IMG/VR virus record: IMGVR_UViG_3300031885_000017
Location: 1-56,227 of that record
Length of the DNA: 56,227 nucleotides
Strand: one strand, 5' to 3'
Source: a virus
Lineage: Duplodnaviria > Caudoviricetes
Position 1 is the stretch's first letter, and the number at the start of each line of letters is the position of its first letter. This document shows, piece by piece, positions 2,043 to 56,069 of the stretch. The position numbers and the translations under genes are program-made. The notes below the pieces were generated by a model. That model was not told the origin of the DNA. It worked only from the letters and a program-made list of their open reading frames with translations, and made no database searches.

Positions 2043-4802
2043 ATGGCCCGAAACTACGTTACTGGGAGATGGGAGCTTCCCGACGGTCCCGTTCCCGGCG
2101 TCGGTGGGGTGGAACAGCTCGATATAGCTGACACCCAAAGTTTGAGGTTCGGGGACAACGAGGTTCTGTACTTCGGGGATGCCTTCGATGTCAGCATAAA
2201 GTGGGATGGGTCCAACCTGAAGATCCTCCCCGTGGCAGACGACACTGGTGCCATTCTCATCGGCAACGGCACCCTAGACATCGACCTCAAGGTGTTTTTG
2301 GGCACGGCTGGCTGCTACTTCCTCTGCGATGTAGGGAAGTCTGAGGCCAGTGTGGTCGTAGCCGGAACCGTACCAATCAATGAGGCTTCAGTTGGCGTCA
2401 CCAACGCCATCCGCGCACTCTACATCGGGTACAGCCCGACGTTCGACAGCGACCTTGAGTACGCCGCTGCTTCTGCATTGGTTGTCGAGATGTCGCCCAC
2501 GGCAGATGGGGCTACCGGGGGCAACAGGGCGAACGCCATCTACGCTCGAATTACCCACCCGACCACGAGTAAGGCCGTACAGGGCTGCTCCGCGGCTGGG
2601 GAGTTCGAGCAGGTCCACGCGGCTAGTGTCATAGTCCAGGCGAGTTATGGTGTCATCCGGCTTGTTGACCGCAACGACGGTGTTACGTGCTCGGCCAACA
2701 GGTCGTTCATCATGGTGCGGGATTACAGCATAACCGCGTACCAGAATCCCAACTTCATCAACTTCTGGAACTACCCGGCACTTACCCTCTCTGCTGGCAA
2801 GTTAATGACCCTGGCGGACGCCAACGGCGCCGGTGGGGAGGGATCCCCCTACAATGCAGCGATTCGTTGCATCTACGGTTCTGGCAGCACACCCATCTGG
2901 TTGATGGCGAGCACCATAGACCCAACAGGGAGACTCGACCTCAAGTTCTTTGGGTCTGCGTCTGGCAACTACCTCTGGTGGGACGCCGATGAGGACATTC
3001 TCAGTCTATACATAGGCGGCAGGACCGTTACCGGCGAAGAGCACGCCTTGGACATCCTGTTCGCGGGTACGGTCGCTGCGACCGCCGACCAGATGGTTGG
3101 CCTCAACGTGAGGGTGTTGCCCGCAGGGGCGCACAGCGATTGGGTCTCGGCCATCTATGCCAAGGTCACGATGCCTGCGACAACCAGGCCAGTCGATGGG
3201 TACGTGAGCGCGGCGGAACTCGAAGTGATACATACCGCCGGCGTTGCGGTTCAGTGTGCTTACTACATCCTGAACCTGAACGAGAACAACGGTGGTGTAA
3301 CAGTCTCCGCGGTCCGCGCCTACATTGGCCTGAACGACTACAGTGTGGCGGCCTACCGGCAACCTAACCTGTTCCACTTCAAGAGTGCTGCGGGGAGGGT
3401 GTCACCGGCTGACGACGACGTGATTCTGACCGAACCAGGAGTGGTCCGGGGTGGTACGTTCAACGTCGCGGTCAGGAACATGTTTGGCACAACGCCATTC
3501 TGGATACTGGGCACCACCACCGTCCCGGAGGCCTTCGCAGACCTCAAGGTGATGGGTAGTGTAGACACCAACTATCTGGAATGGGATGCCAGCGCGGACA
3601 AGTTTAGTCTGGTGACAACGAAGGCTACCGTCACTGGGACGGAGTATTGCGCTGTCATCAATAGCATCACGACACTGGATGCTGGCACCGAAGGGATAGT
3701 CGGTCTTCGGATAGATATGGCACCCACAGGCCCTCTAGCGATATTCGGGGGCGCCCTTCGCGCTGTCGGTCTCTGGTCTGTCGTGACCCTCGTTCAAGGC
3801 GGGGGTATCGGGGGCTACTCCTGCGCCGGAGAGTTTGATGTGATAAGTACGGGCGATTGTACCATCCTTGGTCTCGCCACGTACTACGTCATCAAGTTGG
3901 CCAGCCGGTGTACCCTCACTGGTGGTGCCGCGGTCATCTCCCCCAGAAGGGCGTTCATTGACCTGCGGGATACTGGCGTCGGCGAACTTGGAATGGAAAA
4001 CCTCTTCCTCTTCGAGAATGAAGCGGTTGCCTGTGCATACGGCGACGACCGTATGCTGGTCGCAAGCGGCGACACGCAGGCTGTGACCAACTCGGTCAAC
4101 GTTATGGTTCGCTGTATGGTCGGCGACCTGTCAACGCCTATCTGGTTGATGGCGACCACCATAGCACCGACCGCGATGCCCGACTGGAAGTTCGTTGGCA
4201 CCACAGCCAACAACTACATGTTGTGGGATGCCAGCGAGGACAAGCTCAATGTAGTCGTAACGAAGGCTGCCATCACTGCTGGGGTAGAGACGCCTGCCTC
4301 CATTGCCTTCACCGCGACGATGGATGCCTACACCGAGGGAATGGTGGGTCTCCTGGTCAATGTGACCCCCCTTGGTACTGGGGGCGTCTACGGTACGGGG
4401 GCTTTGCGGGCGGTTGGTATCTGGGGCTTGGTCACAGTGGCGAGCACCTCGATAAAGGGCTACGTCTGCGCTGCGGAGTTCGATGTCATCCAGACGGGAG
4501 CACCGGACGCCGGAGGGGATGCTCGGCCCGAATATCACATCCTGAAGTTGAGCAACAGGTACACCAGTACGTGTACTGTTTCCGGCAGTCGGTCGTTTAT
4601 CGGACTGCGCGATGCGAGTTCGTCCGGTTACGAGATGCCCAACCTGTTCAACTTCATGCAGGAGAGTGTGGCCTCTGCCTGGAACAGCGGACGGATGGTG
4701 CGGTTGAGTGGCACGCCGAAGGCGGCAACGCACGTTGTCCAGTGTCGGGTCGGTGGGACGGATTTCTACCTGATAGCAACCACGACGGCGCCGACCGACT
4801 AG
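2043..4802 (+). CDS. Large virion protein with four ~200-aa tandem repeats (head fibre/spike candidate)
   Basis: Repeats start DLKxxGxxxxYxxWD and contain AxEF(D/E), RSFIxxRD and TPIWLMA-like motifs; beta-rich. Confidence 0.65.
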   Translation: MARNYVTGRWELPDGPVPGVGGVEQLDIADTQSLRFGDNEVLYFGDAFDVSIKWDGSNLKILPVADDTGAILIGNGTLDIDLKVFLGTAGCYFLCDVGKSEASVVVAGTVPINEASVGVTNAIRALYIGYSPTFDSDLEYAAASALVVEMSPTADGATGGNRANAIYARITHPTTSKAVQGCSAAGEFEQVHAASVIVQASYGVIRLVDRNDGVTCSANRSFIMVRDYSITAYQNPNFINFWNYPALTLSAGKLMTLADANGAGGEGSPYNAAIRCIYGSGSTPIWLMASTIDPTGRLDLKFFGSASGNYLWWDADEDILSLYIGGRTVTGEEHALDILFAGTVAATADQMVGLNVRVLPAGAHSDWVSAIYAKVTMPATTRPVDGYVSAAELEVIHTAGVAVQCAYYILNLNENNGGVTVSAVRAYIGLNDYSVAAYRQPNLFHFKSAAGRVSPADDDVILTEPGVVRGGTFNVAVRNMFGTTPFWILGTTTVPEAFADLKVMGSVDTNYLEWDASADKFSLVTTKATVTGTEYCAVINSITTLDAGTEGIVGLRIDMAPTGPLAIFGGALRAVGLWSVVTLVQGGGIGGYSCAGEFDVISTGDCTILGLATYYVIKLASRCTLTGGAAVISPRRAFIDLRDTGVGELGMENLFLFENEAVACAYGDDRMLVASGDTQAVTNSVNVMVRCMVGDLSTPIWLMATTIAPTAMPDWKFVGTTANNYMLWDASEDKLNVVVTKAAITAGVETPASIAFTATMDAYTEGMVGLLVNVTPLGTGGVYGTGALRAVGIWGLVTVASTSIKGYVCAAEFDVIQTGAPDAGGDARPEYHILKLSNRYTSTCTVSGSRSFIGLRDASSSGYEMPNLFNFMQESVASAWNSGRMVRLSGTPKAATHVVQCRVGGTDFYLIATTTAPTD

Positions 4803-7402: not shown

Positions 7403-7486
7403 TCGGGCGGCGACCCGTTGAACCTCCGGGGCGGCCGGGCCATCGGCCCGTAAAGGGCCGCCCCGAATTGTTAGAAGGGAGAGAGG

Positions 7487-25812: not shown

Positions 25813-25998
25813 CTACGGTATGGGGGACTCCCCGACCTTCCGGCCCAGGAAACTGACCGTCCAGCCCCAGCCCTTGGCGGTCCAGATGTTCAGGGGACCG
25901 AGCTGAAGCTCGAAACCAGCGTCGTCCTGCGTCCAGTCGAGAGTGAGCCCCAGGCCGAGGACGTTGTAGCCCAGGGTAAAGAACAGTGAGAACCTCAT
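25813..25998 (-). CDS. Small hypothetical protein
   Basis: ATGA-coupled ORF. Confidence 0.45.
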   Translation of the reverse strand: MRFSLFFTLGYNVLGLGLTLDWTQDDAGFELQLGPLNIWTAKGWGWTVSFLGRKVGESPIP

Positions 25999-27170
25999 TC
26001 CTTCTCCTCCCCAATCCACCGCACCTGCCGGACTTCCTCAGCCGTGGCGAGATGGATGGTGTGCTGATGCGTCTTGCCGTACCGCGGATGGAACAGCATG
26101 AACTCCTGGCTTGGCAGGGTTGCCGCCGCCCGCGATCTTTCCAGGGTTAGCAGTGACGGGCCCACGAAAGAGCCATTCTGGATCACCTCGCCGCCGATCT
26201 CTGACTCGGCGGACTGGCGCTCGTGCAGGTGGCCCTTGAAGTAGTAGTGGATGATTTCGCCCAGGACAGAGTTGAGGCGCAACTTATTGTCGAGTGCCCC
26301 AACATACGTTGAATCAAGGCCCCTGATGCCATGCCCGTGCCGCCCGACGCAGCGCCAACCAAGGATGTCCACCTTGGCCAAGAAACTGCGGTGGAGGTGG
26401 AAGTCGATGGAGCCGCCGGTCAGGGCGTGTACCCCATCCGCCGTCTCCTGCCAAGTGCCGCCACAGGCACCGCGGATACGCTCGGCGATGATCTCCCAGG
26501 CAAACAGCTCGGCGTTGTCAGGGCCGTAGGAATCCCGCGCCCGCTCTGCCGTCCGCCCGTGGTTGCCCACGACCTTGTAGATGACGACCTTCCTGTAGCG
26601 GCGCAGGAAGGAAAGTAGCACGTCGGTCATGTCCTCAACGAACCCCATGACCTGGAAGAGCAGGGACTCGGACATCTGGAGTGCCTGCGTTGGGAACATA
26701 CGGCCGTGACCCTCCAATTCGTCCCCCAAGGCGAATATGTGGAGGGTATCCAGGGGCACCCAGAGCTGATTCATCTGGGTGAACCGGAGGAGACCGTCCC
26801 GCCAGCGGGCCATACGGTCTCTGGCGATGTCGATGTTGTATTCGCAGATGCCGGTCACACGGCGATCTATTTGGCTGTAGTAATGGAGGTCCGAGAAGAG
26901 GGCCACGCCTTCCTGGGGGGTATCGAAGCCCATCTCCTCGATACGGGTGGCAAAGATCTTGGGGGGAATGGGCAGTAGCGGCGCCCTCTCCCGGAGAAAT
27001 CCAGATAGGCGGTCCAGTTGTTCCGCAGATAGATCGGTTTGCGGTTCGGCAGGCTTGTCGGCTATGCGGCCGCCTGGGTGCTTGGGACAATACTTGCTGT
27101 TGGAGTTGGGGTTTGGCGGGGCGAAGATCTCGCCGCAGCCAGGGAACTGGCAGGGTCGTTCCCCACGCAC
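25995..27170 (-). CDS. Calcineurin-like metallophosphoesterase with N-terminal Zn finger
   Basis: SDLH, GD, GNHG, HGH, GHLH motifs; CQFPGC..YCPKH. Confidence 0.88.
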   Translation of the reverse strand: MRGERPCQFPGCGEIFAPPNPNSNSKYCPKHPGGRIADKPAEPQTDLSAEQLDRLSGFLRERAPLLPIPPKIFATRIEEMGFDTPQEGVALFSDLHYYSQIDRRVTGICEYNIDIARDRMARWRDGLLRFTQMNQLWVPLDTLHIFALGDELEGHGRMFPTQALQMSESLLFQVMGFVEDMTDVLLSFLRRYRKVVIYKVVGNHGRTAERARDSYGPDNAELFAWEIIAERIRGACGGTWQETADGVHALTGGSIDFHLHRSFLAKVDILGWRCVGRHGHGIRGLDSTYVGALDNKLRLNSVLGEIIHYYFKGHLHERQSAESEIGGEVIQNGSFVGPSLLTLERSRAAATLPSQEFMLFHPRYGKTHQHTIHLATAEEVRQVRWIGEEKE

Positions 27171-27259
27171 GGGCTCTCTCCCTTCGGGGTAACAGGCCTA
27201 CGGCGGCTCGCCGCCCACCGTGGGCCCTTCTCACACTTTCAGGGTAACATATTTCGCTG

Positions 27260-30043: not shown

Positions 30044-30274
30044 CTATTCCTCCGCCTCCACCATAACCTTGGCCTTGTGCATCGGGTCGATCACCATGCC
30101 GTCCACCCATGACTCCAGCACCAGTGGACACAGGTTGTCCCGCTTTGCGTCACAGTGGAGGCAGGTCTGGTGCGTCAACTCCATGTACTTCCCATCCTGC
30201 CAGACGTACTCCGGATCGCTCAGGAGCCAGTGGTGCGGGAGTCCATTAGGACAGTGGCCGTTATTGGTGTCCAC
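30044..30274 (-). CDS. Small Zn-binding protein
   Basis: C..HHW..CLHC. Confidence 0.55.
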   Translation of the reverse strand: MDTNNGHCPNGLPHHWLLSDPEYVWQDGKYMELTHQTCLHCDAKRDNLCPLVLESWVDGMVIDPMHKAKVMVEAEE

Positions 30275-30746
30275 CTGTCAACCTCGTTAGGCCAAAGGCG
30301 GCTATTACGGATGCGTCGTACACGTCTTGAACCAGATTGTCGGGAAGACCGAACCGGGCCATCGCCCAGGCCTTGATGTCTTCCTTACTCACCCGGTTGG
30401 TGCCGAGCATGGCACTCTTCCAGGTTGAGGGGTCTACTAGTGTGTGTGGAACTCCCAACCGATCTATCGCGTAGCGTAGGGCCCCCACCACCATCCCCAG
30501 ATCGATGGCGGCCTTCCGGTTGGGGCCGACGAACGGACGCTCGACCCAGATGAAGTTGCACCCCTGGAGAAGACTGTTGGGCAGAAGTTCTTGCATCTGG
30601 TGAACGAGCCCCAGGAAACGATCCTCTGCCCGCTGTCCCTTCGCCTCCAGGCGCAGACGGTCTACCAGCGTGTCGTCGTGGCCATTGTTGTCAACGACGA
30701 AGATGGTTACGGCATGGGAGTCAGGATCGATTCCCGCCACTCTCAA
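30261..30746 (-). CDS. ruvC: RuvC-like Holliday junction resolvase
   Basis: GIDP, VERPF, PSTWK, SKE, DVYDA. Confidence 0.88.
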   Translation of the reverse strand: MRVAGIDPDSHAVTIFVVDNNGHDDTLVDRLRLEAKGQRAEDRFLGLVHQMQELLPNSLLQGCNFIWVERPFVGPNRKAAIDLGMVVGALRYAIDRLGVPHTLVDPSTWKSAMLGTNRVSKEDIKAWAMARFGLPDNLVQDVYDASVIAAFGLTRLTGGHQ

Positions 30747-31695: not shown

Positions 31696-32297
31696 TTTGT
31701 GTTTCTCCTCCGCCAGTTGTATAGGGTTAGCGCCGACAGGAACGCGGACCAATCACCGGCGTCATCCTTGTATTGGTAAAGGCGGTACTTGCCATCGGCG
31801 CCGAGCTGGACGGCCCACCGCTCCTTGACTTTTGCCTTGGGATAGAGTTCGTTGTAGGCGACCTGATAAGCCGCCAGTTGGAGTGCCGTTACCGGGTTGA
31901 GTGCGGCGCCCGTCTTGATGTCCAGGACCACGGGCACCCCGCGGAGTTTGCCGATGCGGTCAATGGTTCCGGCGTAGCGATGCCGGGTCGAGTAGACCTG
32001 AACCTCGATACCTTCCGGGATGAACAGGACATCATCCCGGAACTTTACCCAGGCGCGGACGTAGGGTTCGAGGAGCGGATCGGCTTGCATCTCTTCCAGC
32101 GTCAGGGCGTCCCGGTCATAGAGTGCGGTAGCTGTGTGAACCAGGGTGCCCCGCTCTTGGGCCGCGTCCATGATGTCCTTGTCGATCCCCAGGAAGTCAT
32201 TGATGCCGACCATAACCTGGGTGACGCCGGGGATGCGGAGTCCCTTCAGGTAGTAGGAGTGGGTTTGGCTGTCGTAGCGGAAGTCGTCTCTAGGCAT
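31692..32297 (-). CDS. PD-(D/E)XK exonuclease (lambda-exo/Cas4-like)
   Basis: PGVTQV, RGTLVH, YAGTID, LDIKTG, QLAAY. Confidence 0.9.
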   Translation of the reverse strand: MPRDDFRYDSQTHSYYLKGLRIPGVTQVMVGINDFLGIDKDIMDAAQERGTLVHTATALYDRDALTLEEMQADPLLEPYVRAWVKFRDDVLFIPEGIEVQVYSTRHRYAGTIDRIGKLRGVPVVLDIKTGAALNPVTALQLAAYQVAYNELYPKAKVKERWAVQLGADGKYRLYQYKDDAGDWSAFLSALTLYNWRRRNTK

Positions 32298-32784: not shown

Positions 32785-33007
32785 CAGCCATTTCCTTCAG
32801 TACCGCACGGGCGGCCTCTACGCCCTGTTCCGCTGTCCCCTGGCGAAGATCACGGGCAGTAATGTAGTGGACGGCCAGCCTGCCCCCGAATCTAATGTGG
32901 ATTACCGCCCCTGGGTGGTCACGCTGGAAGTGCATAGTAATATCCTCTGCACCTGCTTGAGTCAGAGTCGTGTGATAGGACGCCAGGAAACCTTTAGGCT
33001 CAGACAT
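32777..33007 (-). CDS. Hypothetical protein
   Basis: ORF overlapping neighbours. Confidence 0.5.
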   Translation of the reverse strand: MSEPKGFLASYHTTLTQAGAEDITMHFQRDHPGAVIHIRFGGRLAVHYITARDLRQGTAEQGVEAARAVLKEMADG

Positions 33008-34070
33008 CCGCGGTCTCCTCCGCCTTCTCATTCGGGTCCGGCCGCCACAACAAAGGCGCTTCTTGTATCTTCTGGAGCAATTCCGGCCGTTCCGCCAAGA
33101 CAGTAGGAAATTGTTTTCGCTGAAACTTGACGCCATCGAGCGAGTACCAAGATCCGGCCTGTGTGACGAGCCCCAGTCGCTCCAGTAGGTCTAGTTGACT
33201 GCTCACGTTGTCCACGCCGTCGATGGCGTAGATGTCAAACAGCCCTTGCTTTCCCTCTGGGGCGATGCTGCTCTTGCGGATCTCGGCCCGCACCGAAATG
33301 CCGACCGGATCATCCCCCTCTTTGATGACGCCGGTGCTCGTGAAGTACACAAGCAGCGAGCCCCAGAAGACCAGGGCACCTTCTCCAGCCATCGTGTTAC
33401 GTTTCATGGCCTTCCGACGCTCCCGGCTCCGCGGATCACCCATGATGTCTAGGTGCTGGCGGAGTTGGTTCACGATGACCAGCGCGATTCTGTACTGGGC
33501 CAGCATCGGCCCCAACCGCTGCATCTCTCGGCTTATCGTTCGGGCCGAGAGTCCCGGTTGAGGTTGGTCTTCAATGGTGGCTTCCAGTTGCTTCTGTGCG
33601 GGCAGCGCCGAGAGCGAATCAATGACGATGGACACCAGACGGGCGGGGTCTTCCTCGCGGACCCACTTTATGATCTCCTCGATGTCCTTAAAGCAGGCCT
33701 CTAAGGTTGTGGGCGTCGGCATGACCAGCCGGGCGGGGATGAGGCCGAGGCGTACACCCCGGTCTCGGCTGTACCGATGCTCGGCGTCGATGAGGATCGC
33801 CAACCCGTCTCGGCGCTGCGTTTCCGCCAAGATGTGATATGCGACGGAGCTTTTCCCGGCCCCCTCCTTGCCGTAGAACACGGTGACACGGCCGACGGGG
33901 ATACCCGGTTGCCCGATGATGTAGTCCAGCATCGCGCATTGGGTACTGATGTAGTCAGCTATGTCCGAGGTGAGGGGTTGAGAAGCGAGCTTTAGCTGAA
34001 ACTTGGCAGCGAGACGCTCCTCAAATGTGCCTGGTGCGTCCTCTGGCGGGGACGCCTTCCTCCGCGCCAT
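33000..34070 (-). CDS. recA: RecA/UvsX-like recombinase
   Basis: GIPVGR, GKEGAGKS, IDAEH, VIDS, NQLR. Confidence 0.93.
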   Translation of the reverse strand: MARRKASPPEDAPGTFEERLAAKFQLKLASQPLTSDIADYISTQCAMLDYIIGQPGIPVGRVTVFYGKEGAGKSSVAYHILAETQRRDGLAILIDAEHRYSRDRGVRLGLIPARLVMPTPTTLEACFKDIEEIIKWVREEDPARLVSIVIDSLSALPAQKQLEATIEDQPQPGLSARTISREMQRLGPMLAQYRIALVIVNQLRQHLDIMGDPRSRERRKAMKRNTMAGEGALVFWGSLLVYFTSTGVIKEGDDPVGISVRAEIRKSSIAPEGKQGLFDIYAIDGVDNVSSQLDLLERLGLVTQAGSWYSLDGVKFQRKQFPTVLAERPELLQKIQEAPLLWRPDPNEKAEETADV

Positions 34071-34194
34071 CTCTCTCCCTCCGAAGGTCGGGGTTCGCCG
34101 CCCCTATGTTATGGTCTGCGGCAGGTAGGCCTACGCGCACGTGCAGCCTGGGCCAACCCACCCTACCGTCCTCGGTCCACCTGCCGCGAGAACC

Positions 34195-35668: not shown

Positions 35669-35687
35669 GCTCTCTCCCTTCCTTTAG

Positions 35688-38771: not shown

Positions 38772-39115
38772 TGCAGTGCTGTCTCCAACTCCGGTATCTT
38801 ATGGGCGAAGATCCTCATGGTGTGGGTGTAGGTTCCATCCTTCAGCGGGTCGGAGTGCCACAGCCAGAAGAACTCGGCCAGCTCCTTCAGCCGCGCCTCG
38901 CCGTGCTTGAGGAGCAGGCGCTTCGCTATCCCGGCGTCCTCGGCATCAAATGGAGGGCAGGAGGAACGGCACTCTATCCCGCGCTGGCGGAACCAGTGCA
39001 GGAACTCGCCGACTGTGTTGGCTGGCACCGCCTCACTCCCAGGGGTCGGGCTCCACTCGGATCTCCGGACGTACACGGAATACCTTTGGTTCCCGTCCGT
39101 CAGTGTCGTCCGCAT
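38768..39115 (-). CDS. Hypothetical protein (helicase-associated)
   Basis: ATGA coupled to helicase; GAAGGGAGAGAG RBS. Confidence 0.6.
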   Translation of the reverse strand: MRTTLTDGNQRYSVYVRRSEWSPTPGSEAVPANTVGEFLHWFRQRGIECRSSCPPFDAEDAGIAKRLLLKHGEARLKELAEFFWLWHSDPLKDGTYTHTMRIFAHKIPELETALQ

Positions 39116-39542
39116 CTCTCTCCCTTCGCCTTGCGTTGTGTTCCTGTAGGTGTTTGGCGCGTGTCCTCCACGCCAAGTTGGTGTCGCAGTTGTGGGCGGG
39201 GTTCAGATCATTGTGGTGGATGATCTGCCGCGGGTCTTTCCACCGAGCATCCGGCGTCGGCTGCTTCGACCACGCCGCCATCACCAGCCGTTGCACGGCA
39301 ATAAACAAGGCTTTGGGCCGCACCTTGTCGGTGTTCCGCAACCTGTCGCCGTTACCCGGCGGCATATAGACGTAGAGGTGGCCGTCCGGCCTCAGTACAG
39401 GTTTGATGATCCGGCCCGCGTAGGTGCCCTTGCCCGCCGTGTCCCGCCGCACCCTGCCCAGGTTGGAGGCAACGTAATCCGGGACGCCCGGTATCCGTTT
39501 GAACTCCTCCGGCCGTTGGCAGCAGGGGCCGAAAATAGCCAC
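39033..39542 (-). CDS. NUMOD4-HNH homing endonuclease
   Basis: FKRIPG..YVASNLGRVR; VQRLVMAAW; IHHNDLNPAHN...NL. Confidence 0.85.
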   Translation of the reverse strand: MAIFGPCCQRPEEFKRIPGVPDYVASNLGRVRRDTAGKGTYAGRIIKPVLRPDGHLYVYMPPGNGDRLRNTDKVRPKALFIAVQRLVMAAWSKQPTPDARWKDPRQIIHHNDLNPAHNCDTNLAWRTRAKHLQEHNARRRERDADDTDGREPKVFRVRPEIRVEPDPWE

Positions 39543-40026: not shown

Positions 40027-40216
40027 CTAGCATTAGTAGGGAGGCGCCCCCTACGCGTGCCATTCTAAGCCTAGCGTTATTAGGGGCTGAAGCTGGACTC
40101 TAAGGGATGACCCCTTCTCCTCGGTTCTAGTCTACCTCTATTAGGATGACCTGTCAATCCCTAATAAAGCAAAAGTGCGGCTTCGGAAAGGCTAACCATT
40201 GTGATCATTATTAGGG
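40027..40216. promoter_or_regulatory. Operator-like motif cluster (5 copies)
   Basis: Consensus CTAGCNYTATTAGGR at 40027, 40071, 40132, 40159(-), 40202. Confidence 0.7.
40129..40157 (-). promoter_or_regulatory. Sigma70-type promoter of replication operon
   Basis: TTGACA-17-TAGACT. Confidence 0.75.
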
Positions 40217-45519: not shown

Positions 45520-45837
45520 TCACGGTCGTACCAGAAGTTCTCTTCCCCTTCTCGGCCGCAGTGTCCGCACTGGCTGGGCCTGGACTTCATGGCCGCCTTC
45601 GATGGTCTGTAGGCTCCTATGCGGGGCATGGCGGGGTCTCTCTCCCTTCAGCCGGTAGGCTGTCAGAATCGTCTCGTCTCTAACGACGACGGCCAGCCCA
45701 CCGCGGCAAAGCACTAGCTTCCCGTCCGGCCGCTGGCCGCTCCACTCAGGGTCTTCGACTACGGCATCCGCCTCGCCGGGTAAGATGTCGTGGTCAGCCA
45801 TTCTCGAAAAAGCGTGGGCGCTAATACGGAGTCCCGT
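45520..45837 (-). CDS. DUF4258/BrnT-like RNase-fold protein
   Basis: ISAHAFSRM..I..V..P..VVV..ILTAY; inferred ACG start. Confidence 0.6.
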   Translation of the reverse strand, partial: TGLRISAHAFSRMADHDILPGEADAVVEDPEWSGQRPDGKLVLCRGGLAVVVRDETILTAYRLKGERPRHAPHRSLQTIEGGHEVQAQPVRTLRPRRGRELLVRP

Positions 45838-45901: not shown

Positions 45902-46126
45902 TTAGTCCTCCACTCTAAGGAAATTATACGTCTCAGGGTGGGTTCTGATCAAGCGATGGAAAGCCGATCCTACCGAATCGGCTCCGATCAGCGCCGCGTG
46001 GGTCTCCGGCTCGACGTTCAAGTAGTCGTAAGTTGCCCCGCTCTTGAACGTCACCCGGAGCCTCTTGTCCTCGGCGTCGTAGCCGATGGCTGCGATGTTG
46101 GAGGATTCAACTGCTTTCATGTCCAT
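45902..46126 (-). CDS. KTSC domain protein
   Basis: VESSNIAAIGYD..L.VTFKSGATYDYLNV..ADSVG. Confidence 0.92.
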   Translation of the reverse strand: MDMKAVESSNIAAIGYDAEDKRLRVTFKSGATYDYLNVEPETHAALIGADSVGSAFHRLIRTHPETYNFLRVED

Positions 46127-48434
46127 CGTTGCTCTCTCCCTTCCTGCTGAATCCCCGCCGGTCACTTGCCGACAGTCCCCGCCGTCGGGCAACGCGGGCG
46201 GGCTTCTCATGCTGCGCTATCGGGTGGCTCATGCGCCCGTATTCCTTAGTCCCCGGTTTGGTCTTCAATCTCTGCCTTCTTCTTTGCCAGGTGCCAGCCG
46301 CCACAGGACAGACACTCGACCTGTAACCCATCAGTACCGCACCGGGCGCCAGCTAAGTCTCTCCCGGTTCCGCCACAGTCGGCACAACAGAGCGGCGGGC
46401 GCGGCCCGATGTTGATGGTTGGGTTCGCCGGTTTTGCCTGCCGGGGCACCGGCTTGACCTGCCAGGGCGCGGTGTCGTACTCCACTTCTCGGACGCGACT
46501 GATTCCTGTTCGGTATCGAACTGGGTCGGTGCTCCGTAGGTGGTGGCCACCACCGCCAGTTGACGTTCGGGGAGGGATGCCCCTAAGCATTGGCCCCCTT
46601 CTCCTTTTGGTAGCGTCTCACTTTCAGGATGGCCCGGCGGTGGGGCCAGCATCGGTCGCAGAACAGGAGGCCGCCGGGTTCGTTCGGGTAGCGGTAGACT
46701 AGACGCAGCCCGCCTGGGCACCGGCGGCTCCTGCCCTGGCAGAAGTCTATGATCCCCTCACCCTTGCCGTTCTCGGTCACTCCGGATCCTCAACAAGCTC
46801 GTCTCCAACCAGTTGCAAGGCCGATATGATCTCTTCAGCCTTAATGGTCTCGGAGGCGGTGGTGACGGCCTCTAGGTAGGCTTCGGGGTCGTCTGCCACG
46901 TCGATGGCAAGGCCTTCGACCTCAACCTCTACCTCAGCGTGATAGGTCAATCTGATCTTCATGTCTCTCCTCTCACGCCCAGAGCCCGTAGGCTTCGAGC
47001 CAGTCCCAATGCCAGAAGAACGTGAGTCCGCCCCGGTGCTGGTTCAGCATCGCCTCACCACATGGGATGCAGACCCGCGCCCCGTAGTATCGGACCTCGT
47101 TCGGGCCGACGTGCGGTGAGCCGCAGAGGTAGCACTTCACCCCTGATCCTCCTCCGTCTTGATGAAGTCCAGGGCCATCCGCTCCCCGGCGGTCGCCTTC
47201 CGCACCCGTGTCTTGTTGGTGCGGAGTTCCAGGTCGGCGGCCACCATCTCTATGTTGTCGGCGATGGCTTCCGCTTGCCCTGGGGTGTCTGCCTCGACGT
47301 AGCAGGTCTCCTCCCACACGTAGGTTACGACGTACTTGGTCACGACTTGGCCTCCTCTTTATCCTCCGGCTGCAACACGTCGATGTGGTGGCCCTCGAAG
47401 ATGGCGACGGCCAACCCCTCCTCCCTATCCTGGGCATAGGTGATTGAGGCGGCAATGGCCCCCGCTATACAGGTTGCCTCCACCCAATCGACCGCTGACT
47501 GCTTGTCTTCCCAGACTGTAACGACTGTGTACTTCATGTCCCTCGTTCCCTTCTGCCCTTGCGGGCCGCTATATCCCGACAGAATGGGCAGATGTCGGCG
47601 TATGCTTCCGGCGGCCCCATGTGGGCCACCTCGTAGTAGTGGGCTAGGGCCTGTTTCACTTCTTCGACGTTCCGGGCGTTGGCTGGTCGATAGTCGCCGG
47701 TGGAGATTCTGTAGCCGTTGCCCCGGTGGTAGACTTTGAACATCACTTGACCTCCAATCCGGCGGCCTCCATGCCGTCTACGATGTCCTGGACGTAGCGG
47801 CGCTCTGCTACCACGGTCGGGTAGTAGGGCCGATAGCCGTTGTCTTTGCCGATGTGCTGGTCTATCCAGTTGCGCCCGGCCTGGGTTGCGGGTGCCAGCA
47901 GGAAGACGCTCCCGCCGCCCGTAACATTAATGTCTGCCGTTTTTCCGGTCATGCTCTGCCCCTTCCTCCCACCGCCCGCCCGCTGTTGAAGGCCTCTGCC
48001 CCGTCGCCGATGTCGGCTTGCAGCCTTCCCTTCAGGTCATTCAGGCGGGCGATTGCCTGCTCTACGTTCCGGTTGTGATTGATCGCTTCGTCTTCACACG
48101 CCCTGTTGAGCTGACTGAGTGCCGAGTCAACAAAGCGCAGAAGCTCACGCGCCCTCGTTAGACCCACGTCTTGGCCTCCTCTATCGCCGTCTTCGCCAGT
48201 CCTGCCGCCCGCTGTATGGCCTCCTGTACGTCAACAGAGAGGCCCTTCCAGGATCGCAAGTAGGGCAATGCTGCTTCGAGCGCCGCCAGGAGTTTGGTGT
48301 TGCGATCCCGTAGACGATCCCGTTCCTCTTCGATTGTGACTGGCCCCTTGATCAGTCCACCCATAACTTACCTCCCTTCTGTTTCAGATTCTGGCGCTGC
48401 CACGTCCTGGGATGTGTTTGGGGCCATCCTGGGT

Positions 48435-50668: not shown

Positions 50669-51139
50669 TCACTGCGCCACCCCTACCACTAGAGCTGCGA
50701 GCCGGTGTCCGGGTGGGTGTCCCCATACCCGGCGGGTTCCGTGATCGTAGTCCACAACGTAGCCGTGGCCTGTGTCTGCGCCGCTGATTGCGGCGGCCAG
50801 CGGCACAAGGCGGTTGCTATTCCACCGGCGTAAGAAGCCCAAGATTCGCCAGTCTGAGTAGGTGAATCCGCTGGGGCCATCACTCCGATTGCTCACGTCG
50901 CCGTCCGGGGTAAGGCTGTAGACCGTGCCATCCCGTAGGCGCATGGTGATCTGACTTGCCGCCGCTGGCCCCTTGCCATCCGCCCATGAGCCGCTGACAG
51001 CGGCAAGGTAGGCGGCACCGTTCCGGGGCGCTCCCAGACATGCACAAGTAGGGCATTGCGCCACTTGCACGATGCTCTGACAGAGCCCCCGGCAGGTGTA
51101 GAAACACCCGCAGCTTGGGCAATAGTGAACCTTGATCAC
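50669..51139 (-). CDS. Cys-rich hypothetical protein
   Basis: CPSC/CRGLC/CPTC; start-associated motif upstream. Confidence 0.5.
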   Translation of the reverse strand: MIKVHYCPSCGCFYTCRGLCQSIVQVAQCPTCACLGAPRNGAAYLAAVSGSWADGKGPAAASQITMRLRDGTVYSLTPDGDVSNRSDGPSGFTYSDWRILGFLRRWNSNRLVPLAAAISGADTGHGYVVDYDHGTRRVWGHPPGHRLAALVVGVAQ

Positions 51140-52210
51140 GGTGTCCCTCTCCCTTCAGGTGGCCGGGTTAGCAGATTCGCCGTCTGCTAGTGGCCTCTAT
51201 AGTATCGGCACGTGGGCCGGATTCTTGAATCCTCCCCCAAGACCAACAGGCCACCCTCCCCCGTGCTATACGACCTTTGCTCCTAAGCACCCCCGGCGAT
51301 AATTGTTGCCTTGATTGCCTGGGCGTGGGATATGAACTCGTCCAGGATGGCAAGCGTAAAGTCACGGGGCGAGTCTGCTACGTCTTCCTCGCAGCCGTCC
51401 AGAGCATCGACTAGGGTTTCGTAGATGGCCGCGTATTCAGACGCCCCCACCATCTTGGGGTCTGTCAGTCCGAAATCTTCCGGGTGTGCCACTGTACCTT
51501 CCCTCTTTTCTGTTTACGTTCTGGCTCGTCGTTTGTTGCTCTTGGGGTCAAACCCCACGAGCAAGCAACAAGCAAACCCAAGAGGAACCTTCTACCCCTT
51601 CTTAGCTTCCAACCGGGGCTCTAGGTAGTAGGTCACTGCCCGAACGAGCGGCTTCGACAGTCCCCCGGCAGCTCTCGCCTTCAGTGAGTACCTGGACTTG
51701 AGTGCCTTGTTGTCAACTTTGTCTTTTGGCATGGGTCAGGGCTCCTATTCAGCCTCATCCGGTTCGTACTCAGACCAATCGAAGAGGCCGATGCATCCGT
51801 ACTCGGCACCGATCTCGTCCGGGCTCTTCCAGGCGTCCGGGAACACTGGCAGGCGGTACTCCTGGTGATCGATGTCGAATACTAGTGTCTCTTGTCGGAT
51901 GCTACTCCCACCGAATCCGATGAAGTGAGCGCCGGGCGGTGCTGTCTTCTGTAACTTGGCGATCCGGCGGGTCCGATAGCCGCCTTTTCCTCTCGGCATG
52001 TTGGCTTCTCCCTCCTGCTTTGATCCTTGCCTCTGCCGCCCAGAGCCATCATTCTGGGTTTCCGCGCTCCTGGTGTCCTACTCTTGGCGCATACGGCAAT
52101 CGGCAGAGGCAAGGGCCAAAGGCCCGTATTCTGTTGTGAAGGAGGGGGGCATCCCTGCCCCTGTATGCGGCTTTTCCTTGTCGCTCTTAGTATCGGCCCG
52201 GTTGCCCCAT

Positions 52211-52384
52211 TCCTAATAGGGCTAGGGTGACGGTTGAGTGACATCCCTAATAGAGATAGCACATCCGGGGCCGCTTGTCAAGGGGGTAGGCCGGGAAACT
52301 TTCAGGAAGGCATACCACCTTAGGGCTCAGGTTCAGCCCCTAATAGAGCTAGCGCCCATTGCCTTGTGTCCCTAATAGTGCTAG
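52211..52384 (-). promoter_or_regulatory. Early promoter with 4 operator-like sites
   Basis: TTGACA (52276-52281)-17-TATCTC; motif copies at 52211, 52245, 52338, 52370. Confidence 0.65.
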
Positions 52385-53071
52385 GCCCATTGCGCCACCC
52401 TACCCCATGCCCAAAGCACCAGGACAACAGCCAACAGCCAACAGCCACCGAACCAGAGACAAGGGGTATGCCCTATCCTGTGTTGCGTTGCACGCTACGC
52501 AAGGGCCAGGTTCCTCCGGTCCATCCGCCTATGCCCCTTATCCTTTGGCTGCCAGCCCCTTGCCTCTTGCTCTGAGGTTCTTTGGTCTAGTTCTGGTATG
52601 ACATGGCTTTGGTATCTCTACGGTGTCGTTTGGTTTCTGCTTCTGTTTCGCTTCTGTATCTGATGTCTCATGCAAAAAGTTACAATTTTCGGCTTAGGGG
52701 CCCCGGAGCCTCCGTACCTTCGCTGTGGGTACAAGAATACTCAGCCAACGAACTTGTACCCTTTGTGTGGGGCCCCGACCAAAGCAAGAGACCATTAGCC
52801 CCTAGGCTAAAATTAGCTTCCAGGCTAAATATCGCCCAGGGGCCCCAGCCGGTTAAGGGAGAAATCGCACACTCTCTTACCCTACGCGATTACTCTCGCA
52901 ACCGTGAGCTGCTGCTGGCCTCAGTTCCTACAGTAGAAGTCGGTCTTTGATGAGGAAGTAGACCGCGGCACCGTTGAGGAGAAGCCATGTACCGGCGCCG
53001 ATGAGGAGGCAGCGGATGAGGAGGTAGGCGGAGGCGGGTACGCTGTGGGGCATGGGATCCTCCTGCCTCTA

Positions 53072-54122: not shown

Positions 54123-54401
54123 CTACCCTCCAGAATGTGGGCAGCCGCCGGATCGCTGGTTCTCGGCCAGGGTAGTGAGGGTGTCAATTAGACAGAGGTA
54201 GCACTCCCACCACCAAGTTCCTGAACCCACAGGGTTCCCTTGCTCCTGACACCCGCGGCAGTTGGCGATGTGCTCCGCGTCCCGTTCTCCGTAGACCTCG
54301 AAGTAGGGGGCGAAGAGACGGCGCCGGTGGCAACGGTCACAGCGGGCCAGGAGACGGAAGGTAGGGTCTACGACCCAGGAACGGATGGGTGGAAGTGGCA
54401 T
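54123..54401 (-). CDS. Cys-rich hypothetical protein
   Basis: Three CxxC motifs. Confidence 0.5.
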   Translation of the reverse strand: MPLPPIRSWVVDPTFRLLARCDRCHRRRLFAPYFEVYGERDAEHIANCRGCQEQGNPVGSGTWWWECYLCLIDTLTTLAENQRSGGCPHSGG

Positions 54402-54904
54402 GTTCCTATCCGCCGGGGGTCAATATGGGGTGGTAGAAGAAGATGGGCTTGTTGTCGGGGCGCCGGATCACGATCTCCGTTCGGGAGGGGTCAATGCTGA
54501 TCTGAAACCGGGCTGCCAACACTGCACTCCGGGCGCTTTTGTGTCCAACACCCCCGGCGTATCCGGTGGGGAACAGCGTGTATTCGTCGTAGGTGTAGGT
54601 CATTGCCTTCTCCTCGATGGATGGAGGATCCGCCCCGTCAACGGAGCAAACCCTCCACCACCGCACATCTGGAGTCTCACCCCATAACCCCATGTCCCAG
54701 GTGCGTGCCCGAAGGCCGCTTCTCATTTCTCCCCGACTGGCCTGGCCGGGGCTACCAGCCGCTAGCAGGCTGGCCCGATAATTCGCCTGGGCTTTCCACC
54801 TTGATTGTACCAAGGCGACTTCGCCATTTGCAACATCGCTTCTTGTATCAGCCATTTGGCCGATACTAGAAGGGGAGATGGCTGTGAACCAGGGAGGGTT
54901 GATG

Positions 54905-55040
54905 AAATTACCGAAGGCACCGGATTTTGGGGTCCGGTGCCTTCGACTCTCTGAAGACGCAGGGTGTATTGTGGCGGAGAAGGCGGCGACCTTCAGACGC
55001 CACCACCCCGGCCTTTGAAGGGAGAGAGCTACATCACGGC
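54905..55040 (-). ncRNA. Candidate structured small RNA with anti-RBS seed
   Basis: Downstream of TTGCAT-17-TAACAT; rod-like fold with G-U pairs valid only on the minus strand; 13-bp hairpin 54912-54945. Confidence 0.55.
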
Positions 55041-55044
55041 ATTT

Positions 55045-55073
55045 ATGTTACCAAATGTTCACTGGGGATGCAA
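55045..55073 (-). promoter_or_regulatory. Sigma70-type promoter
   Basis: TTGCAT-CCCCAGTGAACATTTGG(17)-TAACAT. Confidence 0.65.
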
Positions 55074-55096: not shown

Positions 55097-55927
55097 CTAG
55101 AGATTATCGGCGGGGGAGTAGAGATCGTGAGCCCGCTGCGCCAGTTCCTCGGCGTAGGCGGCGGTGTAGCGCCGGAGCATCACCACACTCTTCCATCCGC
55201 AGATTTCCATTATATCTGAGTCCTGAGCGCCGAGGCGTTTCATCTGACAAGCGGCCGCCCGGCGGAAGGCATGGACTCCCTTGTGCTCAACCCCGGCCCG
55301 TCGGCAGAGGCGCCGGACGAGCTGGAGGACGCCCGACTCCGTTAGGGGGCCGCGTTCACCCCGCCAGAGGGTGCCGTTGTTGGTGCCCCAAGAGCGGATA
55401 TACTGGCGGAGGGCCTGGAGGGTGGTGGCGCCCAGCGGTACACTCCGGGTGCCGGTCTTACCCGTAACCTGGACCTTTCTGCACTCCCAGTGTATCTCTC
55501 CCATCGAGATCAACTCCCCCTCGCGGACGCCCGTATCATAGAGCGTGAGGATGAGGGCCCGATCCCGGATGTTGGTGCAGGCGGCGAGGAGTTGCCGGAT
55601 CTCTTTGTCTGTGTAGGTGGGCTGGGGCTCGGTGCGAAAGGCGGCCAGCCGGATGCCGGTCGTGGGATCGGAGGCCAGTTGGCCCTCGGCTACCAACCAG
55701 CGGAAGAAGCGCCGGAGGGCGATCTGGGCCTCCCGTAGGGTCTTGGCCTTGCGGCCGTTCTGGAAGACGATGAGGTACTCGCGCAGCAGGCCGGGTGTGG
55801 TCCCCGACAGCTCCCGGCCCCGCAGGTAGAGGCAGAAACGCCGGGCGTCCCGGACATAGTGGTAGATGGTGGAGGGACGGAGCCCCTCTAGTTGCAGTGT
55901 GCGGCCAAAGTCCTCTGTCAGCTCCAT
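55097..55927 (-). CDS. int: Tyrosine integrase
   Basis: TGVREGE (R), GKTG (K), HAFRR, GW, RRY; SAM-like N-domain. Confidence 0.93.
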   Translation of the reverse strand: MELTEDFGRTLQLEGLRPSTIYHYVRDARRFCLYLRGRELSGTTPGLLREYLIVFQNGRKAKTLREAQIALRRFFRWLVAEGQLASDPTTGIRLAAFRTEPQPTYTDKEIRQLLAACTNIRDRALILTLYDTGVREGELISMGEIHWECRKVQVTGKTGTRSVPLGATTLQALRQYIRSWGTNNGTLWRGERGPLTESGVLQLVRRLCRRAGVEHKGVHAFRRAAACQMKRLGAQDSDIMEICGWKSVVMLRRYTAAYAEELAQRAHDLYSPADNL

Positions 55928-55942
55928 CTCAGACTCAAAGTC

Positions 55943-55996
55943 AGCGGGCGGCTGTTAACCGCTAGGTTCCAGGTTCGAATCCTGGTCGGGGAGCCA
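55943..55996 (+). other. 3' part of tRNA-Asn(GTT), putative att core
   Basis: Anticodon arm GGCGG-CTGTTAA-CCGCT, T-arm CCAGG-TTCGAAT-CCTGG, ends GCCA; 5' acceptor strand and D-loop absent; 15 nt from int start. Confidence 0.85.
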
Positions 55997-56069
55997 ACGA
56001 AAAGCCCCGTCATGTGGCTGCACGGCGGCAGAACCGGGAAATGCAGCCGGATGGCGGGGAACCAGCCCC

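Follow-up and report, generated by a model that had tools for sequence, protein, structure and literature searches.

The window analysed here, the whole of the linear 56,227-b virus record IMGVR_UViG_3300031885_000017 of IMG/VR (CheckV completeness estimate, 77%), carries on its minus strand, just downstream of the tyrosine integrase gene int, an element that we call RNA1. We are highly confident that positions 55073 to 54903 hold a structured minus-strand RNA element, and RNA1 is a new phage RNA family, adjoining int and supported by covariation. At its predicted 5' end lies a seed that exactly complements a 12-nucleotide (nt) motif, GAAGGGAGAGAG, which otherwise stands in front of phage start codons, a striking and non-random correspondence. 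We tentatively propose, with a probability of roughly 45%, that RNA1 is a new phage small RNA that would pair with ribosome-binding sites (below, ribosome sites) and repress their translation. The structure, conservation, strand and non-coding status of RNA1 are observed, as are its complementarity to the ribosome sites and the statistics of that complementarity.

On the basis of its fold and of a covariance model (R1), RNA1 is predicted to be ~125-135 nt long and to span 55038 to 54903 on the minus strand (-), both ends being predictions. The stop codon of int is followed, after 23 nt, by a -35-like hexamer, TTGCAT (55068-55073, (-); 3/6 consensus positions), then by a 17-nt spacer ending in TGG and by the hexamer TAACAT, so that TGG and TAACAT (55045-55053, (-)) form an extended -10 element. 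We refer to this putative promoter, TTGCAT-17-TGgTAACAT, as P1. Among the ten relatives that have upstream sequence, nine conserve the hexamers while the spacer varies; TTGC is kept in 9/10, and TAACAT (55050-55045) is identical in 9/10, the exception being the metagenome contig L026. The RNA start is predicted near 55038, and the seed, GCUCUCUCCCUUC (55017-55029, (-)), which is the exact complement of GAAGGGAGAGAG(C), begins ~9 nt later within GCTCTCTCCCTTCAA (55029-55015, (-)), as an earlier reading of the sequence alone (the sequence-only reading) had placed it. RNAfold, applied to 54900-55040 (-), returned the same rod-like fold, unpaired toehold and closing hairpin that this reading had drawn. 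The rod (54946-55029, (-)) is an 84-nt stem with 30 pairs in four helices, which comparison of variants also supports; its pairings are GCUCUCU/AGAGAGU, AAGGC/GUCUU, CGGGGUG/CACCCUG, GUGGCG/CGCCAC and GAAGGU/GCCUUC, and CCCUUCA stays free. The rod leads into a 13-base-pair (bp) hairpin with an 8-nt loop and then GUAAUUUCAUC (54912-54945, (-)), presumed to be the 3' end or a terminator. The predicted fold has an energy of -69 kcal/mol (z-score, -6.37), and none of 200 shuffled sequences was equally stable. CCCUUCA (55022-55016) has an unpaired probability of 0.97-1.00 and GCUCUCU (55029-55023), in the basal helix, one of 0.01-0.16. The 3' strand of that helix, AGAGAGU/C, itself resembles the motif. 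The sequence-only reading had suggested a comparison with Rfam, and no family matches RNA1: across the whole window none of 4227 models reached its gathering score, and between 54000 and 56227, with expectation values (E) up to 10, only a chance small nucleolar RNA row (other strand, 16.5 bits) overlapped RNA1.

The same element lies at the same location in a related IMG/VR record, G001 (IMGVR_UViG_3300031885_000019, 52,984 b), the int of which is 75-77% identical to that of the window. Further relatives were found in metagenomes by an 18-nt seed pattern, and Logan sequencing runs were found by shared 31-mers. The seed scan returned 30 loci, 16 of which carry RNA1 (G001 itself and 15 further contigs); the other 14 were chance matches without the following CCGGGGTG. 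Over the six distinct full-length variants, the 43 pairs of RNA1 are formed in 98.1% of cells (252/257), a proportion that falls to 42-53% when the partners are slid by 1-3 columns. Compensatory double changes occur in five pairs, of which one lies in the rod (C-G to U-A) and the other four in the hairpin, and this count of five was reached by 33 of 500 shuffles; 11 cells are changed on both sides, a number reached by none of 500 shuffles. Many G-U/G-C switches are also seen among the variants of the rod. A paired change in the hairpin (54943 T>C with 54914 A>G) recurred in contigs of four further sediment DNA runs, and among the differences listed for contigs of four DNA runs none fell at 55000-55035, which is weak evidence given that 26 further differences fell outside the list and that the runs were chosen by shared words. 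Model R1 scored 144.7 bits on the RNA1 of the window and found no second copy in the window.

The plus strand folds nearly as well (-67.7 kcal/mol; z-score, -5.1), so that the strand was assigned from the promoter and from G-U pairs in the comparison of variants, not from energy. On the minus strand 252 of the 257 cells pair, compared to 229 on the plus strand, with 25 cells being G-U or U-G. The sequence-only reading had already pointed to strand-specific G-U pairs; they do favour the minus strand, although the rod of the window has four such pairs and not the three that had been counted. Insertions and deletions of 1 nt occur within the rod and the loop among the variants, and the plus-strand open reading frame (ORF) that follows the motif copy varies from 7 to 140 amino acids (aa), with shifts of frame, across nine variants; we conclude that neither strand codes at RNA1, and a plus-strand gene after the motif copy was rejected because of this variation in ORF length. 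The seed follows the -10 element after just 6 nt in the L008 and L012 groups, a spacing that puts it at the extreme 5' end of the RNA. The most divergent copy, in L026 (1266 b), has a different gene context, in which RNA1 is followed by a homologue of a NUMOD4-type gene (window 39033-39542) and then by a tRNA-Asn fragment. G001, the metagenome variants and the covariation together bear out the earlier suggestion of a separate, conserved, structured and non-coding minus-strand RNA gene just past int.

The motif complemented by the seed is the commonest 12-mer in both genomes, with seven copies in the window and six in G001, and the 13-mer that includes the terminal C occurs four times in each genome. 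Six of the seven exact copies in the window are in sense orientation, 0-8 nt before the start codons of ORFs of 57-391 aa, and the seventh is the antisense copy at 55017-55028 (+), inside the RNA1 gene; the seed had been described from the sequence as an exact complement of a motif otherwise found in sense before start codons, and this description holds for all six other exact copies. These precede an exonuclease gene (25995-27170; motif at 27174-27185, (-), with motif and flanks shared with G001), a 204-aa gene upstream of the gene for a ClpP-like head protease (7474-7485, (+)), a 57-aa gene (35670-35681, (-)), a 115-aa gene, the ATG of which the motif abuts (39116-39127, (-)), an 81-aa gene (45638-45649, (-)) and a gene for a KTSC-domain protein (45902-46126; motif at 46132-46143, (-)). 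When up to two mismatches were allowed, the window held 25 matches compared to 6.3 expected, and none of 100 shuffles reached 25. G001 has five exact copies besides the one in its RNA1 gene, and the related phage fragments G318 and G319 have five copies each (at most one mismatch), all on one strand. Orthologous genes have kept the motif, namely those for the exonuclease, the RecA-like protein and the 57-aa protein. The dispersed copies lie mostly 4-48 kb from RNA1. Other ribosome sites in both phages, as judged from crude gene calls, are ordinary GGAGG or AGGAG.

The sequence-only reading had named the 3' end of the host 16S rRNA as a possible full explanation of the motif, and we found that it accounts for 8 of the 12-13 letters but not for the rest. 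A Chloroflexota 16S sequence (from genome G293) ends in ...GGAUCACCUCCUUUCU, with the tail form CCUCCUUUC; the tail was taken from G293, and the 16S 3' end of G225, a second genome, did not read as canonical. The first eight letters of the motif, GAAGGGAG, form 8 bp, one of them G-U, with the canonical tail CUCCUUUC, indicating that this part is a very strong yet ordinary Shine-Dalgarno site. The AGAG(C) tail of the motif is unexplained by 16S and private to the phage. Among window ribosome sites with GGGAG, the next four letters are AGAG in 7/20 and AGGG in 2/20; in G001 the corresponding numbers are 4/20 and 3/20, and AGGG still pairs with the seed via G-U. We also considered the motif as a phage-specific promoter. 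The sequences upstream of its copies are, by eye, unrelated, and this interpretation was dropped.

Pairing energies were calculated with RNAduplex between the first 16 nt of RNA1 and the called ribosome sites. In the window, 11 of 83 sites were at or below -20 kcal/mol, compared to 3 of 2000 same-strand windows inside genes, and in G001 this energy was reached at 10 of 72 sites compared to 1 of 2000 internal windows. At or below -17 kcal/mol the real seed found 17 sites, whereas 200 shuffled seeds found a mean of 2.3 and a maximum of 10. By arithmetic from base composition, an exact antisense 12-mer of the commonest 12-mer is expected ~0.004 times per window strand.

At some ribosome sites the complementarity extends beyond the seed. 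The site of a 67-aa gene in G001, CCCCGGCCUUUAAAGGGAGAGAG, matches RNA1 nt 2-24 at 22/23 positions. In the window, the gene for a RecA/UvsX-like recombinase (33000-34070) is a candidate target, with a ribosome site, CCCCGACCUUCGGAGGGAGAGAG (34071-34093, (-)), that lies directly before the AUG and matches RNA1 nt 2-24 at 20/23 positions (21/23 pairs counting G-U); in related phages the match is 20/23 in G001 and L180 and 15/16 in L181. By eye, part of the CCCC of this site belongs to a small upstream hairpin. Relative to the null, the 22/23 and 20/23 matches stand at the 99th percentile or higher. The ribosome site of a 156-aa gene (50669-51139), CCCGGCC..CUGAAGGGAGAGGG (51145-51170, (-)), matches RNA1 in two parts, with a score of 7, at least the 95th null percentile. 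The first ribosome site of the neighbouring operon reads, by eye, UUUGGAGGGAGAGGGC in L014, L025, L030, L010 and L001 and forms 16 pairs with the first 16 nt of RNA1; the corresponding site of the window itself is a weak match. CCCUUCA, the unpaired part of the seed region, pairs with UGAAGGG inside ribosome sites.

In the mechanism that we propose, RNA1 would have a sigma-70-type promoter of its own, directly after int, and its transcript would end at the 13-bp hairpin. The single-stranded toehold CCCUUCA would meet the (U)GAAGGG of a Shine-Dalgarno region, after which the AGAGAG(C) of the target, which is iso-sequential with the AGAGAGU strand of RNA1, would displace that strand to give a 12-13-bp duplex, with the match extending to ~22/23 nt on a few ribosome sites. 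Such a duplex, reaching to 0-8 nt from the start codon, would cover the ribosome site and so block initiation. The likely targets would be ~10 phage genes with the extended site GAAGGGAGAG, and the strongest candidates would be the RecA-like recombinase gene, the 67-aa gene of G001 and the first gene of the neighbouring operon. Transcription of RNA1 and the position of its ends are inferred, as are its action in trans, repression by it and whatever part it has in lysogeny. Within this proposal, a broad regulon is no more likely than a narrow set of targets made up of the recombinase, the neighbouring operon and a handful of others.

Several observations weigh against this interpretation. The promoter-like hexamers proposed by the sequence-only reading are present and conserved, but they agree with the sigma-70 consensus at 7/12 positions plus the TG before the -10 element, and a promoter scan that applies a 9/12 rule makes no call; moreover, L026 has neither int nor P1 in the 346 nt available upstream of its RNA1. 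The tail of the hairpin, GUAAUUUC, has 4 U in 8 without a U tract, and a terminator tool makes no call. Of the 13 letters of the seed, seven are tied up in a basal helix that never varies, and the invariance of the seed is largely a matter of construction, since the relatives were found through the seed pattern or shared 31-mers. A pattern free of the seed, GGGGTG-N8-16-GGTCGCCGCCTTCT, found G001 alone among viral contigs and gave >120 matches in genome contigs, of which 80 were examined and none fitted R1 at E <0.1. An R1 search of 27 genomes of the order of G225 gave no match, and the runs sharing 31-mers with the element comprised 13 sediment DNA runs and no RNA run. As GAAGGGAG is merely a strong Shine-Dalgarno site, any CU-rich strand would look like an anti-ribosome-site sequence, and seed and anti-Shine-Dalgarno energies are indeed correlated (Spearman, 0.40). 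Beyond 12 nt most motif copies are unmatched (mean extension score of 4.8 compared to 4.3 for the null). Finally, the genes with the motif are functionally mixed and include those for the exonuclease, the RecA-like recombinase, the KTSC protein and a head-region protein.

RNA1 might instead be a structured RNA with another job, such as protein binding, a decoy function or stability, in which case its CU-rich 5' strand would just build the basal helix and its match to the motif would be a side effect of simple pyrimidine and purine runs related to anti-Shine-Dalgarno and Shine-Dalgarno sequences. The full pairing and invariance of GCUCUCU would fit such an RNA, as would its motif-like 3' strand (AGAGAGU/C), the ability of the 16S tail to account for the first eight motif letters and the lack of a coherent functional set among the motif genes. 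We nevertheless regard this as somewhat unlikely, given that an exact 12-13-nt complement of the commonest 12-mer would be so rare by chance, that it sits at the extreme 5' end of the RNA (6 nt past the -10 element in the L008 and L012 groups), that CCCUUCA stays single-stranded, and that the 22/23 and 20/23 extended matches reach at least the 99th null percentile. It is unlikely that RNA1 is a cis element, whether it ends or insulates the int transcript or opens a long leader that continues past the hairpin into the next operon, with the CU-rich 5' end folding onto the operon's first ribosome site as a long-range anti-Shine-Dalgarno sequence. There is no terminator between int and RNA1, and the terminator-type features at the end of RNA1 are a 13-bp stem with four covarying pairs and a tail without a U tract; in several variants the 5' end can pair over 16 nt with the first ribosome site downstream, and a structured leader comes directly after. 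On the other hand, a second conserved promoter (TTGCAA-18-TACAAT, 9/12 with TG) stands between the hairpin and the operon, the corresponding ribosome site of the window matches weakly, L026 has RNA1 without int upstream or that operon downstream, and the dispersed copies of the motif are 4-48 kb away.

It is very improbable, and largely refuted, that the element acts as DNA (recombination arm site, origin or cruciform) or provides a plus-strand ribosome site for a gene antisense to int. The nearly equal fold of the plus strand would be consistent with either, and in variants with a short leader the motif lies 7 nt before a plus-strand ATG; the ORF that would begin there, however, ranges from 7 to 140 aa and shifts frame across nine variants, and the 25 G-U cells are A-C mismatches on the other strand. 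The attachment core is 900 nt away, beyond int, and an attachment-arm site at RNA1 was rejected on this position. We also weighed a more far-reaching form of translational repression by RNA1, in which it would be an RNA-only master switch, situated beside int and governing ~10 dispersed lytic and recombination genes, with a role in lysogeny and immunity; this we consider decidedly unlikely. Such a gene set would carry an extended Shine-Dalgarno site as a private tag (GAAGGGAG followed by AGAG), and RNA1 would imitate the anti-Shine-Dalgarno tail of 16S while additionally reading the private extension. When made, for example in a lysogen, RNA1 would out-compete ribosomes at the ~10 dispersed genes simultaneously, and the same genes of incoming relatives would be silenced too, which would provide immunity and maintenance of lysogeny without, or beside, a protein repressor in phages of Chloroflexota.

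The window, which comes from an uncultured temperate phage, encodes an SU10-type major capsid protein and a ClpP-like head protease, together with a family A DNA polymerase, DnaB-like and UvsW-like helicases and a Toprim primase, and also an exonuclease, a RecA/UvsX-like recombinase and the tyrosine integrase (int, 55097-55927, (-); Pfam Phage_integrase, E 9e-23). Pfam and PHROGs searches of the 10 ORFs adjoining RNA1 found no regulator and no repressor-like domain, in agreement with the sequence-only reading, which had recognised no CI-like repressor beside int; the same searches of six G001 ORFs past the attachment site found no regulator. The 3' part of a tRNA-Asn(GUU) gene adjoins int (55943-55997, (+)) and is the phage attachment site. 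In L012 a full-length tRNA lies beside int (69.6 bits). G001 is syntenic with the window and circularly permuted, with ~13 kb of G001 separating the two ends of the window; since G001 thus runs ~13 kb past the window end, the tRNA-Asn piece is an attachment site within a fragment of a free phage genome and not a junction between prophage and host.

A stretch of 54 nt of the tRNA-Asn piece is 100% identical in genome G225, and the piece was matched in 287 of 301 sampled genomes of the phylum of G225, which is also that of G002, a Chloroflexia metagenome-assembled genome. Four other lineages, represented by one genome each, gave 78-79% identity or no match. This identity and the matches across the sampled genomes of the phylum make a Chloroflexota host likely, with phyla other than Chloroflexota barely sampled. 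The DNA polymerase (PolA) protein was <30% identical to those of all cultured phages compared, so that the phage has no close cultured relative and no host name can be taken from one. A search based on int gave no relative among genome contigs and G001 alone among viral contigs.

The region downstream of RNA1 has further features. A second conserved promoter (TTGCAA-18-TACAAT; 54833-54804, (-)) is predicted to drive a second structured RNA domain (54797-54669, (-)), which in seven variants has a conserved loop, UAUGGGGUGAG, and 31 consensus pairs; double compensatory changes are seen in 12 of these pairs. The domain resembles a long cis-regulatory leader serving the small variable ORFs downstream. 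A GGUGGAGGAU/AUCCUCCAUC helix comes after it in the window and in L012, L015 and L022, where it could mask or unmask the next ribosome site. All Rfam rows for the domain were below threshold (Betaproteobacteria-1, 21.5 bits; sul1, 27.2 bits in L001). Right after the predicted start of the second promoter, L001 (4152-4215, (+)), L008, L012 and L015 carry a ~65-nt module that is absent from the window. The module scores 25.9 bits (gathering score, 35; E 7e-5 in a 351-nt search) against the model of the CPEB3 ribozyme, which resembles that of hepatitis delta virus; its first helix, GGAGGCC/GGCCUCU, is 7 bp long and has a basal G-U, and its P4 region fits poorly. We regard a CPEB3-like self-cleaving ribozyme here as a lead only, suggested by the model score. 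Farther along, the G001 homologue of a Cys-rich 92-aa protein (window 54123-54401) has an apparent ATT start, and not ATG, directly after GGAGGGAGAGGGCA (L001 ~4412-4440; G001 ~31710-31735).

A non-coding stretch of ~500 nt is conserved between the window (52170-52700, (+)) and G001 (30133-30634); it has stops in six frames, mismatches spread evenly over codon phases and insertions and deletions that are not multiples of three. CCTAATAGNGNTAG repeats occur four times at 52212-52384 and twice at 40071-40145 (six compared to 0.11 expected), and the 52170-52700 stretch also has a tandem run of CAACAGC and an A+T-rich tract. It looks like a set of iterons or operators, that is, an origin or control region. 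TAGTATCGGCC has exactly two copies, inverted with respect to each other (52188-52198, (+), and 54858-54868, (-)), that bracket a 2.7-kb segment containing the second promoter together with its structured leader and small variable ORFs. The palindrome TATCGGCCAAATGGCTGATA (54865-54846), just upstream of the second promoter, includes one of these copies, and TAGTATCGGCC and TATCGGCCAAATGGCTGATA could be a candidate operator or recombination site for some protein. A TGTAAAC operator was rejected, as its three matches (1.1 expected) were reached by 11 of 100 shuffles. With RNA1, a second covarying RNA domain and repeated DNA motifs, the 3-kb stretch adjoining int looks like the control region of the phage, and the repeated DNA motifs nearby suggest an additional protein regulator.

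To our knowledge, RNA regulation in Chloroflexota is almost unstudied, and a literature search, judged from its search results alone, gave nothing specific on Chloroflexota or on a phage RNA of the kind of RNA1. Small phage RNAs that set lysis-lysogeny decisions or immunity by base pairing include P4 CI RNA, P22 sar and lambda OOP. Each of these acts on one neighbouring transcript, through termination or cis-antisense overlap. RNA1, by contrast, lies clear of every gene, and its matches are scattered. DicF and similar prophage-borne small RNAs act in trans and reportedly occlude the ribosome sites of several mRNAs; their known targets are host genes, while the evident matches of RNA1, in a phage of an uncultured host, are the phage's own sites.

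The c4 RNA of P1 and P7 is excised from a longer transcript and uses its loops to pair with a single target, ant, encoded in the same operon. It blocks the ribosome-binding site of ant as part of immunity (PMC12197685). The c4 RNA resembles RNA1 in being a phage-encoded structured small RNA with complementarity to a ribosome region, which in RNA1 is exact over 12-13 nt at six sites. RNA1 differs in having its own promoter-like hexamers, a pairing region at its 5' end and about ten dispersed matching sites, and in lying 4-48 kb from most of these rather than in the operon of its target; the c4 family model gave no match to RNA1 in Rfam searches up to E 10. In RsaE/RoxS of Firmicutes, unpaired C-rich motifs bind the G-rich Shine-Dalgarno sequences of several mRNAs and prevent initiation (PMC6158497). 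RNA1 likewise has a single-stranded C-rich motif (CCCUUCA) complementary to the Shine-Dalgarno core. RsaE/RoxS RNAs are chromosomal regulators of metabolism with duplicated loop motifs, whereas RNA1 is encoded by a phage, has a single 5'-terminal seed of 12-13 nt and finds its best matches in the phage's own genes; neither an Rfam model nor a sequence match relates the two. By analogy, the biologically closest system would be the c4 RNA of P1/P7 and the mechanistically closest RsaE/RoxS; RNA1 belongs to neither family and, function aside, is a new RNA family supported by covariation. If RNA1 acts as proposed, phages of Chloroflexota would gain their first described regulatory RNA, and one small RNA would address a set of genes through a phage-private extension of their ribosome sites, a logic unlike that of the one-target antisense immunity RNAs of P1, P4 and P22.

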